This document shows, piece by piece, positions 13,069 to 21,972 of a stretch of DNA of 64,000 nt (position 1 is its first letter; every line of letters begins with the position of its first letter). Both the position numbers and the translations under genes were made by a program. The stretch is from NCBI RefSeq assembly GCF_053078305.1, contig NZ_CP166879.1, one strand, 5' to 3'. A model generated the notes under the pieces. It did no database searches, was not told the DNA's origin, and worked only from the letters and a program-made list of their open reading frames with translations.

Positions 13069-13268
13069 CCGCCCGTTATTGCCGGGCTGCGTTGCTGCCC
13101 GGATCTCCTCAACCTTCTCCTCCTCTGATGTTATATAACTAAAACACGCAAAATCGTGCAGTCTGTGTATGGTTTTGTAATTTCTTTGTGTTGATTAATT
13201 TATTGAAAATAAACTGTTAAAGAGATAAATCTCGATCGTCGTCACAGATCATCTTTTGCTGCATGGTT

Positions 13269-13314
13269 TATGCGTTTTTATGCGCATATTATCTTAAATA
13301 CGCAAAAACATGCA
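13269..13314. promoter_or_regulatory. Candidate operator/promoter upstream of the epimerase operon of the PTS island
   Basis: ttATGCGtttttATGCGCAtat and tACGCAaaaacATGCA within 60 bp of the start codon; related motifs recur at 21671..21715. Confidence 0.3.
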
Positions 13315-13330
13315 AAAGAAGGAATTTGAA

Positions 13331-14041
13331 ATGGCTGCCCCGAAAATTGTTTTATCTCCGTCGCTGATGTGCGCGGATTTGCTCAATTTGAGCGATGCGG
13401 TAAAAGCGCTGGAGGAGATTGGCGTCGATGCCCTGCATATTGATCTCATTGATAGCGCTTTCAGCCCCAGTATGCCGCTGGGGCTGGAGACGATTAAGCA
13501 GTTACGTAAAGCGACAAACCTGCCTTTTGATATCCACATTATGTCGATGAATAACGAGTGGTTTATCCAGCAGGTTCTTGAGATTGGCGTGCAGCGAGTT
13601 TCCTTTCACTATGAGACGTCGTTGCACCCTGACAGGCTGGTTAATCTCATTAAAAAACACAATGTTGAAGTTGGCGTGGCGTTAAATCCTGCCACCAGCT
13701 TAACGTCGCTGGATTACCTTCTGCCTTCGCTGGATTACGTTTTGCTGATGCTGATTAATCCGGGCTTTGCGGGAGATAAAAATGAGACACAGGTGCCTTA
13801 TGCCATTGAAAAAGTGCGTAACCTGCGGGAGAAAATTTGCGGGATAGATTCAGGTGCCGCCATCCAGGTCGATGGTCGGGTTTCTTTTGCCTCGATCCCT
13901 GGGCTTATCGCCGCTGGTGCGAATAATCTGGTACTTGGCAGCACTGGGCTGTTTATTAAAGGCGCGACGCTTGCCGACAATAAAACGCAGTTGGATCGCT
14001 ATGTGCGTGAAGGTTTGGCACAGTCAGGAGGCCAGCAATGA
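13331..14041 (+). CDS. Ribulose-phosphate 3-epimerase family protein (AlsE/Rpe-like ketose-phosphate 3-epimerase)
   Basis: 237 aa; ...PSLMCADLLNL...HIDLIDSAF.P... TIM-barrel epimerase signature; AAGGAA RBS 9 nt upstream of ATG. Confidence 0.8.
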   Translation: MAAPKIVLSPSLMCADLLNLSDAVKALEEIGVDALHIDLIDSAFSPSMPLGLETIKQLRKATNLPFDIHIMSMNNEWFIQQVLEIGVQRVSFHYETSLHPDRLVNLIKKHNVEVGVALNPATSLTSLDYLLPSLDYVLLMLINPGFAGDKNETQVPYAIEKVRNLREKICGIDSGAAIQVDGRVSFASIPGLIAAGANNLVLGSTGLFIKGATLADNKTQLDRYVREGLAQSGGQQ

Positions 14042-14595
14042 GTTATCAGACTAATCAGGAAAACGTGCTGGCTGAGTTACGCGCCACGCTGGGAAATATC
14101 AGCGCCGATGAGGTTGAACGCTTAATTGCAAGGATCGAAGCGGCAGAGAACGTCTTTTTTGTCGGCGTTGGCCGGGTGCTGTTGTCATTGCAGGCAATGG
14201 CAAAACGGCTGGCGCATCTGGGTATTAAAACCTACGTCGTTGGGCAAATTACGGAGCCTGCCATCACCGAGCGCGATCTGCTTATCGTGGGTTCCGGAAG
14301 CGGTGAGAGCATGTTTCCTCTCGGCATTGCCAGAAAAGCGAAAAGCTTTCATGCAAGCGTTGTGCATATTGGCGCAAATCCCGAAAGCAGTATGAAAGCG
14401 TATAGCGACCTTTTTGTGCGCATCGGTGTAAAAACCAAACTCAACTTACCTTCTGAAATCCCCTCCATTCAGCCGATGACCTCTCTTTTCGAGCAATCTT
14501 TACTGCTGCTGGGAGACATCGTTGCCCTGGAATTAATCGGCAAGAGAAAAATCAATATGCATGAGCTGTGGCAGTTCCATGCCAACCTTGAATAA
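14038..14595 (+). CDS. SIS-domain sugar-phosphate isomerase (6-phospho-3-hexuloisomerase-like)
   Basis: 185 aa; start overlaps previous stop (ATGA); SIS-type fold pattern VFFVGVGR...LLIVGSGSGES. Confidence 0.7.
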   Translation: MSYQTNQENVLAELRATLGNISADEVERLIARIEAAENVFFVGVGRVLLSLQAMAKRLAHLGIKTYVVGQITEPAITERDLLIVGSGSGESMFPLGIARKAKSFHASVVHIGANPESSMKAYSDLFVRIGVKTKLNLPSEIPSIQPMTSLFEQSLLLLGDIVALELIGKRKINMHELWQFHANLE

Positions 14596-14675
14596 ATGCC
14601 CGCGGCATCAATGATTTCCGCCATATCTGATAAGCCTGTTTTCAGATATGGCGCTTTTTATTTGAAGGAATAACT

Positions 14676-15326
14676 ATGTTTTCAGCAGTTATCTTTGATA
14701 TGGATGGCGTGCTTGTTGATTCGGAACCGGTGTGGCGAGAAGTGGAGTGCGAATACTACCTGCGCAATTACGGCTTATCCCTGCAACGTGAAGATTTCGA
14801 CCCTTTTACCGGTATGCCAGTCACCATTTTTTTACGCAAGTTGCATCAACGCCACGCTCTTCCGGAAGATAACCTCCGGCAGGTGCATGATACGATAGTG
14901 GAAGAAGTCGCCCGGCGAATCAGGCTCAAACCTGCGCCATTGCCGGGGGTATATGAATTACTCAATCACCTGCATCAGCACAATATTCCGCTGGCGGTGG
15001 CGTCATCTTCGCCGCAGCGGCAGATAGATAATGTTCTCAGCACCCTGAATATGCGCCACTATTTCTCTGCCGTGATTTCTGCCGAAGGGCTGGCGCATGG
15101 CAAACCGCATCCGGAGATTTTTCTCACCGCCGCATTGATGACAGGTCAAGAGCCAGAATTTTGCCTGGTGATTGAAGATTCGCTCAATGGCGTTGTTGCA
15201 GCAAAAGCGGCGGGTATGCACGTTATTGCGCTACCGGCAGAGCACCAGCAGGACGACCCGCGCTTTACGCTTGCTGACGGCAAAGTGACCAGTCACTGGC
15301 AAATTCTCGAACGGTTTTGCGAATAA
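14676..15326 (+). CDS. HAD-superfamily sugar phosphatase / beta-phosphoglucomutase-like hydrolase
   Basis: 216 aa; N-terminal DxD motif VIFDMDGVLVDSE, C-terminal EDS.NG motif; GAAGGA RBS. Confidence 0.75.
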   Translation: MFSAVIFDMDGVLVDSEPVWREVECEYYLRNYGLSLQREDFDPFTGMPVTIFLRKLHQRHALPEDNLRQVHDTIVEEVARRIRLKPAPLPGVYELLNHLHQHNIPLAVASSSPQRQIDNVLSTLNMRHYFSAVISAEGLAHGKPHPEIFLTAALMTGQEPEFCLVIEDSLNGVVAAKAAGMHVIALPAEHQQDDPRFTLADGKVTSHWQILERFCE

Positions 15327-15353
15327 AAAAGAGACTGATGACAAACGAAAAAA

Positions 15354-20761: not shown

Positions 20762-20776
20762 TTTAGTGATTATTGA

Positions 20777-21592
20777 TTAATGGTGTGATTTACCGCCGGT
20801 GATATTGATCACGGAACCGGTAATGTAGGAAGAACGATCCGAAACCAGGAAAGAAATTAAGTCAGCGATTTCTTCGAGTTTGCCAGGGCGACCAAGCGGG
20901 ATAATTCCTTTGTAATCTTTATGAACATGTGAGGGATCTGTGCCGCGTGTATAAGCAAGAGCACGGAAATTCGCTTCGCTGTTCATAGGAGTAGGAACGT
21001 TTATAGCTGGTTCAACGCTGACAACGCGAACGTTAAACGGGCCCAGTTCTTTTGCCCATGAAAAGGTGAATGCATTGACGGCGGCTTTTGTCGCTGAATA
21101 ACAGCTTTGTCCACGCGATCCCTGAACACCTGCTTCAGATGTCATATTAATAATGACGCCTGACTGCTGTTCGACCATCTGACGAGCTACGGCCTGCGAT
21201 ACCAGGTAAACGGCTTTTTGATTCACTCCCACCATAAAATCAAAGTCGTCTTCACTAAGTTCGTACTCTGGTTTTTGTTTAAATACATCGACCAACAGTC
21301 GCGGGCGGCTGACCCCGGCGTTATTAACCAGGCCATCAATATGACCAAACTTTTCTACGACTGCCTGTGTGAGAGCTTCAACCTGGGTCTTTTTTGTGAC
21401 ATCACATTTTATAAAGGTAATGCCTTCCATCTCATTAAAGCTCTGGTTGGGAGCCAGATCGGCATAAACGACATTTGCGCCATTTGCAGAGAGGTTTTCG
21501 ACCATTTTTTCGCCTAACCCCATACTGCCCCCGGTCACGATCACCACTTTTCCTGAGAGATCCAACCATTTGTTTGCTTGATCCATCTTCAT
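20777..21592 (-). CDS. Short-chain dehydrogenase/reductase (sorbitol-6-phosphate dehydrogenase-like)
   Basis: 271 aa; TGGSMGLG cofactor motif; YSATK catalytic motif. Confidence 0.8.
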   Translation of the reverse strand: MKMDQANKWLDLSGKVVIVTGGSMGLGEKMVENLSANGANVVYADLAPNQSFNEMEGITFIKCDVTKKTQVEALTQAVVEKFGHIDGLVNNAGVSRPRLLVDVFKQKPEYELSEDDFDFMVGVNQKAVYLVSQAVARQMVEQQSGVIINMTSEAGVQGSRGQSCYSATKAAVNAFTFSWAKELGPFNVRVVSVEPAINVPTPMNSEANFRALAYTRGTDPSHVHKDYKGIIPLGRPGKLEEIADLISFLVSDRSSYITGSVINITGGKSHH

Positions 21593-21670
21593 TCTCCACG
21601 TTTCTTCATTGATTAAAGCTTACTGCCAGCATGATTTTTATGCAGCCAGCATCATTTTGTTTACATCTTA

Positions 21671-21715
21671 ATGCGTGTTTTTGCATGTTTGTAATTTATG
21701 CGCAGAAACATGCAT
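21671..21715. promoter_or_regulatory. Candidate operator/promoter upstream of the SDR-PTS operon of the island
   Basis: aATGCGTGtttttGCATG and tATGCGCAgaaacATGCAt about 80-120 bp upstream of the SDR start; motif family shared with 13269..13314. Confidence 0.3.
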
Positions 21716-21936
21716 TGCCTATGGAGATCGTTAATATTTGAGAGATGAATCACATGATTTATTATATTTTCATATTAAACAATTGGTTGCATTGTTTTCA
21801 TTAATTTTGCGTATTGCTTTCCAGGATTCAAATATTTCTTGTTAATAGAATTATTAATGCGTGACTCTGCGCGAATAGAGGTTTTTGTGCGGTTTTGTGC
21901 GTGTTTGATTTTGGCGGGAAGTTAAACCAGAGAGGA

Positions 21937-21962
21937 TCCCGACCGGCGATTGCTGGTCGGGA
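21937..21962 (-). terminator. Candidate terminator hairpin downstream of dtpB
   Basis: tcccgacc-ggcgattgct-ggtcggga, 8 bp GC-rich stem 10 nt after the dtpB stop; weak U-tract. Confidence 0.3.
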
Positions 21963-21972
21963 GAATGGGAAA

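Follow-up and report, generated by a model that had tools for sequence, protein, structure and literature searches.

What could a block of ten catabolic genes inserted between rsmJ and dtpB, which are direct neighbours in Escherichia coli K-12, allow its host to use? We address this question for a stretch of 64,000 nt from contig NZ_CP166879.1 of the assembly GCF_053078305.1 (hereafter, the window), in which the interval 13069-21972 runs exactly from the rsmJ stop (13068) to the dtpB stop (21973). The block is a genuine catabolic island, accessory to the chromosome, and K-12 has nothing at the corresponding site. It is the enterobacterial version of a widespread Firmicutes-type polyol phosphotransferase system (PTS) module, joined to a conserved epimerase-isomerase cassette, with enzymes that recur in many bacteria of the gut and of plants, and very probably it acts as a functional, co-regulated PTS polyol regulon. 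The best overall explanation, which we hold with about even confidence, would be self-regulated PTS catabolism of a non-canonical hexitol via D-allulose-6-phosphate to fructose-6-phosphate.

The ten genes are intact in the open reading frame (ORF) list, cover positions 13331-21586 and are closely packed or overlapping in two convergent groups, three on the plus strand and seven on the minus strand. The plus-strand group starts with the first cassette gene, encoding an Rpe-like ketose-phosphate 3-epimerase (13331-14041, 236 aa), followed by the genes for a SIS-domain sugar-phosphate isomerase (14038-14595, 185 aa), whose start overlaps the epimerase stop, and an HxpB-like HAD-IA sugar/hexitol-phosphate phosphatase (14676-15326, 216 aa). 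On the minus strand, the first gene of the PTS operon encodes a GutF-type short-chain dehydrogenase/reductase (SDR), a member of the hexitol-6-phosphate dehydrogenase family (20777-21586, 269 aa). It is followed by genes for a mannitol-family EIICB permease (19283-20749, 488 aa), EIIA of the mannitol/fructose type (18858-19286, 142 aa, overlapping the EIICB gene), a DeoR/GlpR-family regulator with NCBIfam and Pfam DeoR matches (18119-18817, 232 aa), an MtlD-like long-chain polyol-phosphate dehydrogenase (16929-18101, 390 aa) and a dedicated HPr, closest to the HPr domain of FruB/FPr (16639-16926, 95 aa). The last gene encodes a GldA-family iron-dependent polyol dehydrogenase (15490-16581, 363 aa). 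The order and orientation of the genes had been described in an earlier, sequence-only reading of this DNA and are the same in the ORFs, and the ten family assignments made there were reproduced by NCBIfam and by the RefSeq annotation of a 99.9% identical genome. The gene coordinates needed only small corrections of the likely starts of the epimerase (13331), SDR (21586), EIICB (20749), HPr (16926) and GldA-like (16581) genes.

In K-12 MG1655, dtpB (3640862-3642331) and rsmJ (3642380-3643132) are convergent neighbours, in line with the adjacency given by the sequence-only reading, and the 48-bp spacer between them contains a single hairpin. In the window this spacer is replaced by the island, and so are the last codons of both flanking genes, the junctions falling within the 3' ends of rsmJ and dtpB. 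In particular, RsmJ ends with GTPSVD in the window versus GTPV in K-12, and DtpB ends with SHS versus SH. The hairpin shared by the two genes in K-12 gives place to a new one located 3' of dtpB (21937-21962, inverted repeat I2, with 11-nt arms that are 91% complementary).

Among complete E. coli genomes the island is accessory, being carried by 16 of 5,426. The carriers form two allele groups, nine genomes with 99.9% and seven with 98.2% identity to the window, and the insertion site is the same in the two genomes examined (one per group). The window contains no tRNA gene, and there is no integrase or insertion sequence (IS) ORF in the interval, all ORFs of at least 70 aa being either the ten genes or shadow ORFs inside them. 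This agrees with the earlier observation that the borders carry no mobility gene; the direct repeats, integrase, tRNA or IS expected at the borders of an integrase-borne island are not found there, nor is a plasmid copy of the island present in PLSDB. Given the lack of a tRNA, an integrase, an IS and a plasmid copy, the mobile origin of the island was rejected. The G+C content is 37-46% over the PTS half, versus approximately 52-56% in the upstream flank. The two convergent operons are separated by a repeat of the repetitive extragenic palindromic/bacterial interspersed mosaic element (REP/BIME) type (15330-15484), which has about 40 matching places per E. coli genome. An Rfam match to the small RNA ES036 (CssrF) at 15377-15419 on the minus strand lies inside this repeat and thus is probably repeat-derived.

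The island genes are under purifying selection. Neither E. coli allele has a disrupted gene among the ten, and the pooled ratio of nonsynonymous to synonymous substitution rates (dN/dS) is 0.10 for nine genes, the epimerase gene being excluded for indels. Characteristic motifs are also retained: GIHARPG in HPr, the phospho-histidine motif GLAIPHG in EIIA, VACDSGMGSS with its cysteine in EIIB, TGxxxGxG, NNAG and YxxxK in the SDR and the catalytic motifs of the HAD protein, while GxGxxG and K-x4-N-x2-H are invariant in the MtlD-like protein. The divergence between the alleles is uneven. From the SIS gene to the HPr gene, inter-allele dS is 0.10-0.17, similar to that of the flanking core genes (0.11-0.14), whereas from the MtlD-like gene to the SDR gene (16929-21586) it is 0-0.023. 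This mosaic suggests that the PTS half was later replaced by recombination.

The two operons share the same promoter/operator design. The 24-bp box ATGCRTKTTTMTGCGCATAWWTTA has exactly two matches in the 64 kb (0 expected by chance), one per promoter and each oriented with its operon; 8-9 nt after it, each promoter has an exact GCAAAAACAYGCA, and these are the only two exact matches in the window. Upstream of the epimerase gene, the box ATGCGTTTTTATGCGCATATTATC (13270-13293, plus strand) fills the spacer between the -35 and -10 elements and includes the TATTAT -10, and a second operator-like box GCAAAAACATGCA (13302-13314, plus strand) is located just downstream of the inferred transcription start. 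The PTS-operon promoter/operator (21672-21715, minus strand) is built alike. There the 24-bp box ATGCATGTTTCTGCGCATAAATTA (21692-21715) follows a TAGGCA -35 and occupies the 17-nt spacer between this element and the TAAATT -10 of the SDR promoter, and GCAAAAACACGCA (21672-21684) lies downstream. Moreover, each promoter has distal operator-like repeats 150-220 bp upstream, at 13136-13160 on the epimerase side and at 21854-21907 on the PTS side.

Each promoter also contains a CRP-like site, CTCGATCGTCGTCACA (13231-13246, plus strand) and TGTGATTCATCTCTCA (21739-21754, minus strand), with the centre, by inferred spacing, approximately 61 bp upstream of the inferred start. The TCACA half-site at the epimerase promoter is kept in Salmonella, UBA5654 (an Enterobacteriaceae metagenome-assembled genome, MAG) and Superficieibacter, and the TGTGA half-site at the PTS promoter is kept in five of five aligned sequences. 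The promoter elements in general are conserved in the same three lineages, the PTS-side box being nearly invariant, and the DeoR proteins are 95-97% identical between genera. Since both operons share the same promoter/operator design, they form one regulon. The convergent epimerase-SIS-HAD operon described by the sequence-only reading is thus not independent of the PTS operon. The island DeoR is the presumed repressor of both operons, and control by CRP is also probable. The pattern expected of a DeoR-repressed and CRP-activated regulon, a common operator at all promoters, is observed here, with the 24-bp and 13-bp boxes occurring only at these two promoters.

The PTS and two of the dehydrogenases belong to hexitol families without being canonical members of them. 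Compared with K-12 proteins, EIICB has 45% identity to MtlA and 39% to CmtA, and it scores below the MtlA family cutoffs (506.4 vs 589 for PRK15083, 390 vs 468.4 for TIGR00851). It is the sole permease, hence a glucitol-family EII with EII-GUT domains is not encoded. EIIA matches best the IIA domains found in FruB and MtlA, and HPr (79.3 on TIGR01003, cutoff 47.9) is most similar to the C-terminus of FruB. The SDR passes PRK06171 (359.8, cutoff 304) and is 58% identical to the SDR heading a gutFRMCBA-type sorbitol operon, compared to 29% identity to K-12 SrlD. We thus place it in the hexitol-6-phosphate 2-dehydrogenase family. Operons of the gutFRMCBA type are reported to be induced by sorbitol or to have been tested functionally (PMC7702098, PMC5723342).

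The MtlD-like protein is 26% identical to K-12 MtlD, and every mannitol-1-phosphate dehydrogenase model scores far below its cutoff (the best one 151.8 vs 368). It belongs to a clade with 40-60% identity within and 22-28% to canonical MtlD. In Lachnospiraceae, a gene of this clade shares an operon with canonical MtlD, hence the MtlD-like enzyme is unlikely to be a plain mannitol-1-phosphate dehydrogenase. The HAD protein falls just short of the HxpB model NF008087 (189.3 vs 191); it is 35% identical to K-12 HxpB, and its best match in PDB is 1TE2, a 2-deoxyglucose-6-phosphate phosphatase. The GldA-like protein passes PRK09423 (501, cutoff 336) and not the GldA equivalog model (424.9 vs 700), with 49% identity to K-12 GldA. 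PDB sequence searches yielded no close solved relative that fixes the specificity of these proteins.

Relatives of the island delimit its conserved core. Orthologues of the MtlD-like protein that are 83-87% identical occur in Salmonella enterica (including the type strain of subsp. diarizonae), Superficieibacter and the Enterobacteriaceae MAG, and in Salmonella and Superficieibacter the island occupies the same neighbourhood, from uspA/dtpB to rsmJ-prlC. Island proteins of E. coli and Salmonella are 68-95% identical, which indicates that there was no recent exchange between them. The next relatives come from Firmicutes (50-60% identity). The core module, consisting of DeoR followed by SDR, EIICB(A), MtlD-like and HAD genes, is found in Enterococcus, Vagococcus, Oceanobacillus, Amphibacillus and bee-gut Lactobacillus, and in Anaerostipes the module lacks the HAD gene. 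All enterobacterial versions encode HPr, which the Firmicutes modules lack, and the GldA-like gene is confined to E. coli and Salmonella; both are enterobacterial additions to the Firmicutes-type core. In this respect the earlier count of three dehydrogenases, though correct in the family assignments, overstates the pathway, as the GldA-family gene is outside the conserved module. The enterobacterial and Firmicutes HAD proteins are 28-36% identical, versus approximately 43-71% for the other proteins, and the phosphatase may have been recruited separately.

The cassette consists of the Rpe-like and SIS genes, which are adjacent in every examined locus where both were detected. Rpe-like, Rpe-partnered SIS and MtlD-like proteins each form a clade of their own. 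The island epimerase scores below the cutoffs of the Rpe models TIGR01163 (177.8 vs 212.6) and NF004076 (157.7 vs 165) and of the AlsE model NF007266 (145.1 vs 271). Its clade is distinct, with 52-67% identity among the sampled members. The loop after beta-strand 8, GSTGLF in the island enzyme, has the length of that in AlsE (G-T196-S197-G198-L-F), the Rpe loop (G-S-A-x-F) being one residue shorter. This loop is reportedly the specificity determinant of AlsE, and deletion of one residue is said to shift its preference to ribulose-5-phosphate. The six-residue loop G-S-T-(S/G)-x-(F/Y) is present in 116 of the 119 members of the clade. The SIS protein marginally passes the HxlB model TIGR03127 (171.9, cutoff 160), and its best PDB match is Bacillus subtilis YckF, which we take to be HxlB. 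Its identity is 57-71% to SIS proteins encoded next to Rpe-like genes, and 31-37% to HxlB encoded next to HxlA. Neither the ORFs nor NCBIfam reveal an HxlA/OMPdecase gene in the island.

The partners of the cassette in other genomes vary. Its commonest metagenomic setting pairs it with a CmtA-like permease (58-67% identity to CmtA of K-12) and a near-canonical MtlD as the sole dehydrogenase. It also occurs beside a GutF-type SDR and an MtlA-like permease (without an MtlD-type enzyme), beside an aldo-keto reductase and a CmtA-like permease, several such loci adjoining canonical mtlA-mtlD, and beside an ATP-binding cassette (ABC) transporter and a PfkB kinase. In Serratia, the cluster consists of a mannose-type PTS and the cassette only, and a short contig (L109) begins in the same way. 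As the Serratia cluster has no dehydrogenase, the cassette alone should convert a PTS-made sugar phosphate into a central metabolite. RpiB/AlsI and AlsE perform such a conversion for D-allose-6-phosphate, and an arabinose-5-phosphate isomerase together with Rpe would perform it for a pentose.

Many of the metagenomic loci (L090-L130) combine the cassette with a CmtA-like permease and a CmtB-like EIIA. In one of them (L108), genes for CmtB, CmtA and a zinc-dependent dehydrogenase precede the cassette, resembling cmtB-cmtA-yggP of K-12 (L081, 3472-5331). The cryptic cmt genes of K-12 may be a remnant of a cassette-type system.

We also considered HxlA and the Rpe-like protein as interchangeable partners of SIS proteins around a 3-hexulose-6-phosphate hub. 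This was rejected as a general rule, because the SIS clades are distinct and both pairs co-occur in two metagenomic loci, L149 and L165. In these loci a mannose-type PTS is followed by HxlA, HxlB, Rpe-like and SIS genes in a row, with a homologue of MtaA/CmuA-family (URO-D-like) methyltransferases nearby; such an arrangement may serve a methylated sugar releasing formaldehyde. Another metagenomic locus (L084) shows a further uncharacterized combination of these enzyme families: its operon starts with a GutF-type SDR, contains a mannose/sorbose-type PTS, DhaL, DhaK, HxlA and HxlB, and adjoins a canonical-type MtlD. In Lachnospiraceae, mtlA-mtlR-mtlF-mtlD operons (L007/L025, L034, L036, L038) also encode HxlA, HxlB and an MtlD-like second dehydrogenase, and these HxlA/HxlB are bona fide (267-271 bits on TIGR03128).

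Taken together, these data are best accommodated by the following scheme, in which the phosphoryl flow is the most directly supported part. The phosphoryl group would pass from the FPr-type HPr to EIIA and the mannitol-family EIICB, yielding a terminal polyol phosphate. Two NAD-dependent dehydrogenases from different families would then oxidize this phosphate at the carbon adjacent to its free end. MtlD uses hexitol phosphates with a manno-type C2 and S6PDH-type SDRs use those with a gluco-type C2; accordingly, the MtlD-like enzyme would take substrates of the former kind and the GutF-type SDR those of the latter. As each pair of C2-epimeric hexitol-6-phosphates should yield the same 2-ketohexose-6-phosphate, the two reactions may converge on one ketose phosphate. 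The Rpe-like enzyme is the candidate ketohexose-6-phosphate 3-epimerase, in the role of AlsE. The SIS protein could be its partner isomerase, either in the RpiB/AlsI role for allose-6-phosphate or as a 3-hexulose isomerase. The HxpB-like phosphatase may serve as a valve that relieves a build-up of hexitol or ketose phosphates, and the GldA-like enzyme is likely a late accessory.

Somewhat better than even odds can be given to a cassette-dependent hexitol route that ends in fructose-6-phosphate. The hexitol class is supported by the 45% identity of EIICB to MtlA, by the family of the SDR (the PRK06171 match and the 58% identity to the gutFRMCBA-type SDR) and by the HxpB-like phosphatase. That the substrate is not plain mannitol or sorbitol is argued by the distance of the MtlD-like clade from MtlD (22-28%), by its sharing of operons with canonical MtlD and by the cassette operons located beside mtlA-mtlD. 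A hexulose rather than a pentulose intermediate is suggested by the AlsE-length loop in 116 of 119 clade members and by the observation that co-expression of HxpB with AlsE gave the highest psicose titre among six E. coli phosphatases (PMC10576766). A mannitol-type permease should recognize the D-erythro end common to mannitol, glucitol, D-altritol and allitol. The latter two, D-altritol (identical to D-talitol) and allitol, would not be served by mtl and srl; they differ from mannitol at C3, and both could be converted to D-allulose-6-phosphate and then, by the 3-epimerase, to fructose-6-phosphate. The allitol/allulose-type route had been offered as an example by the sequence-only reading. 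This proposal gains independent though indirect support from the GutF family of the SDR, the epimerase loop, the dehydrogenase-free clusters of the cassette with a PTS and the HxpB-like phosphatase; allitol or D-altritol as the specific substrate is a tentative suggestion. Also doubtful, though worth stating, is the general proposal that the cassette and the stereo-complementary dehydrogenases constitute an unrecognized widespread PTS pathway for rare hexitols via D-allulose-6-phosphate. It would include a new activity of SIS proteins similar to 3-hexulose-6-phosphate isomerase (PHI), namely, isomerization of allose-6-phosphate/allulose-6-phosphate or of a 3-hexulose.

The scheme gives roles to the PTS and to both dehydrogenases as well as to the epimerase and the phosphatase, and several points weigh against it. 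If oxidation is confined to C2, no step requires the SIS protein; this would change with some oxidation at C1 or C3. Moreover, the SIS protein is homologous to 3-hexulose-6-phosphate isomerase, and the geometry of its reaction is probably nearer to that of arabinose-5-phosphate isomerase than to that of allose-6-phosphate isomerase. The epimerase is marginally nearer to Rpe (34% identity to the E. coli protein) than to AlsE (32%), and its clade has a three-residue insertion after NPGFAG that is present in neither Rpe nor AlsE, so that it may act on a substrate different from those of both enzymes. In bee-gut Lactobacillus, Enterococcus pallens and Anaerostipes, no cassette accompanies the core module in the locus; the scheme does not explain such genomes, and they fit better with dehydrogenase products that are already central, such as fructose-6-phosphate or ribulose-5-phosphate. 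Allitol and D-altritol are rare in nature, which is odd given the wide distribution of the module. Finally, a cassette-bearing operon of Streptococcus uberis (SUB0285-0289), the one related cluster found mentioned in the literature, has been called a mannitol-specific PTS, at the level of annotation (PMC2657157).

Some of these points would be natural for a pentitol route, in which the PTS phosphorylates D-arabitol and/or ribitol, and the MtlD-like enzyme and the SDR oxidize C2-epimeric pentitol-5-phosphates, or arabitol-1-phosphate and arabitol-5-phosphate, to ribulose-5-phosphate or xylulose-5-phosphate. The cassette would then be an extra Rpe and an isomerase, converting ribulose-5-phosphate to arabinose-5-phosphate or ribose-5-phosphate, that feed the pentose phosphate pathway. 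The epimerase scores slightly higher with the Rpe model (177.8 bits) than with that of AlsE (145.1 bits), which is consistent with this, as is the dispensability of the cassette in many hosts, expected if the pentose phosphate is already central. The same holds for the PHI-like SIS protein, since PHI would move the carbonyl the same distance from the phosphate as arabinose-5-phosphate isomerase, and an enzyme of the latter type, GutQ, is encoded in the K-12 sorbitol operon. However, the AlsE-length loop of the epimerase clade and the origin of the PTS and both dehydrogenases from hexitol families speak for six carbons, and the cassette also partners mannose-family PTS. Known substrates of the mannose family are almost all hexoses. 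Salmonella subsp. diarizonae and Enterococcus casseliflavus are described as adonitol- and D-arabitol-negative. We consider the pentitol route unlikely, but it is the alternative that survives best.

Slightly less probable is a redundant second system for mannitol and sorbitol, where the MtlD-like protein is a mannitol-1-phosphate dehydrogenase and the SDR is a sorbitol-6-phosphate dehydrogenase, both producing fructose-6-phosphate. The HAD protein would then be a hexitol-phosphate valve, and the cassette would have an unrelated or regulatory role, like GutQ in the gut operon of K-12. This is the annotations taken at face value, and it agrees with the cassette-free modules in several genomes and with the mannitol label of the S. 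uberis operon (PMC2657157). In addition, L. helsingborgensis, which depletes a hexitol annotated as glucitol, upregulates on a pollen diet a third gene annotated as a sorbitol-6-phosphate dehydrogenase, Ga0133561_11324 (PMC8456714); this gene is located few genes away from canonical mtl genes and is possibly the SDR of the module. The clearly induced sugar-alcohol clusters of bee-gut Lactobacillus on pollen are the canonical gut, mtl and gat-like ones (PMC8456714). We rejected this transcriptome as a pointer to the substrate, the only extra gene that is up being one SDR gene, possibly that of the module. Redundancy is made less likely by the scores of the MtlD-like protein (151.8 against a cutoff of 368, 26% identity to K-12 MtlD), by its coexistence with canonical MtlD in one operon and by the cassette operons that adjoin canonical mtlA-mtlD. 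Through their common operators, the cassette and the PTS operon are linked, and as K-12 already has mtl and srl, retention of the island under purifying selection would be left unexplained.

A substrate of another class is improbable to a greater degree: a heptitol (volemitol or sedoheptitol, via sedoheptulose-7-phosphate), a tetritol, galactitol or talitol via tagatose-6-phosphate with C4 inversion by a 3-hexulose, or a modified polyol. The three-residue insertion after NPGFAG could reflect an unusual substrate, plant-, pollen- and insect-associated hosts fit plant polyols, and some relatives carry HxlA, Dak or MtaA-like genes beyond simple hexitol schemes. Nevertheless, positive evidence does not single out any specific compound, and the hexitol families of the PTS and the SDR make four- and seven-carbon substrates less likely. 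The inversion of tagatose-6-phosphate to fructose-6-phosphate through a 3-hexulose was considered separately, and nothing supports it; moreover, Salmonella subsp. diarizonae is described as dulcitol-negative. The remaining explanation, a cryptic or decaying remnant like the K-12 cmt genes, is very improbable, since the rarity of the island in E. coli (16 of 5,426 genomes) is countered by ten intact genes in both alleles with dN/dS of 0.10, by operators and CRP-like sites conserved across genera and by intact catalytic and phosphorylation motifs.

Several other features of the window are of note. A second accessory sugar island is located between hicAB and nikR (39165-45014) and encodes a GntR regulator, galactitol-type EIIA, EIIB and EIIC, an FGGY kinase and a class II aldolase (PRK07998); it is absent from this place in the otherwise near-identical strain DSM 103246. 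A further difference from that strain is in the region 29194-31604, where the window does not have the ISVsa5 insertion in the DUF2776 gene and the IS3 between two DUF4049 genes. The window starts with the thermoregulator of the shuA/chuA 5' untranslated region (197-228, Rfam) and chuA-chuS (approximately 226-3285), a locus that we take to be a marker of a phylogroup B2/D/E/F-type background. A match to the antisense RNA AgrB (7296-7379) adjoins dinQ.

As the set of enzymes recurs in enterococci, vagococci, bee-gut lactobacilli, Anaerostipes and several Enterobacterales, hundreds of gene clusters would gain an annotation once the substrate of the island is identified, and functions would be assigned to three uncharacterized clades, MtlD-like, Rpe-like and SIS. 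The "cryptic mannitol" Cmt system, known for roughly 30 years, might thereby find an explanation as well, and the island-positive E. coli are genetically tractable. If the rare-hexitol pathway is true, the same chemistry would explain the cassette operons with CmtA-like permeases and, possibly, the E. coli cmt genes. If the substrate belongs to the allitol/allulose branch, this bears on gut handling of the now common sweetener D-allulose and its reduction product allitol.

PTS polyol operons as such are textbook systems, and it is the combination of enzyme families in the island that matches no characterized route. A characterized operon with an assigned substrate, which the sequence-only reading had named as possible counter-evidence, was not found in the full-text literature, and neither was any published characterization of the island or the module, the search including six RefSeq protein accessions. 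The mtlA-mtlD-mtlR system of E. coli also combines a mannitol-family permease (MtlA, 45% identity) with an MtlD-fold polyol-phosphate dehydrogenase, and a ketose-6-phosphate is the expected product in the island as well. Unlike it, the island has EIICB and EIIA split, a dehydrogenase with 26% identity to MtlD that fails every mannitol-1-phosphate dehydrogenase model and DeoR instead of MtlR, and adds the SDR, epimerase, SIS, HAD, HPr and GldA-like genes. The gutFRMCBA operons of Firmicutes have an SDR of the same family, which is likewise the first gene of the operon, but the island transporter is of the mannitol and not the glucitol family, GutR and GutM are missing, and there are a second dehydrogenase and the cassette. 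The K-12 cmtBA genes share the split mannitol-family EIICB and EIIA, and a CmtA-like permease is the commonest metagenomic partner of the cassette; however, the island EIICB is 39% identical to CmtA, and the cmt locus contains YggP and YggF without the cassette. From HxlA/HxlB of the ribulose monophosphate pathway, the island resembles only HxlB, whose domain model its SIS protein just passes. HxlA is missing, the Rpe-partnered SIS proteins form a separate clade with 31-38% identity to HxlA-partnered HxlB, and co-occurrence of both pairs in two metagenomic loci shows that they are not equivalents.

The D-allose pathway of K-12 (AlsK, RpiB/AlsI, AlsE) is similar in that an isomerase and a 3-epimerase channel a C3-epimeric hexose phosphate into fructose-6-phosphate, and in the AlsE-length loop. 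The differences are the 32% identity of the island epimerase to AlsE and its failure on the AlsE model, the SIS fold in place of the RpiB fold, and entry by a polyol PTS and dehydrogenases in place of an ABC transporter and a kinase. The D-allose PTS cluster of Listeria, with Rpe-like and RpiB-like proteins, is similar to this pathway. Pentitol PTS operons contain a galactitol-type PTS, zinc-dependent medium-chain dehydrogenases and RpiB, two dehydrogenases with Rpe and RpiB being found in Listeria and Enterococcus avium. In general make-up the island agrees with such operons, as an Rpe-family gene and an isomerase accompany its PTS and two dehydrogenases of polyol phosphates, but it includes none of the galactitol-type PTS, zinc medium-chain dehydrogenase and RpiB families. 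The arabitol operon of Bacillus methanolicus (PMC6685057) has the same general make-up. The psicose locus of Klebsiella pneumoniae (PMC6020474) has a permease, a ribokinase-type kinase and a deoxyribose-phosphate aldolase in place of a PTS, polyol dehydrogenases and a SIS protein, yet it resembles the island in being accessory and in having a DeoR-type regulator and an allulose-6-phosphate 3-epimerase for a rare ketohexose.

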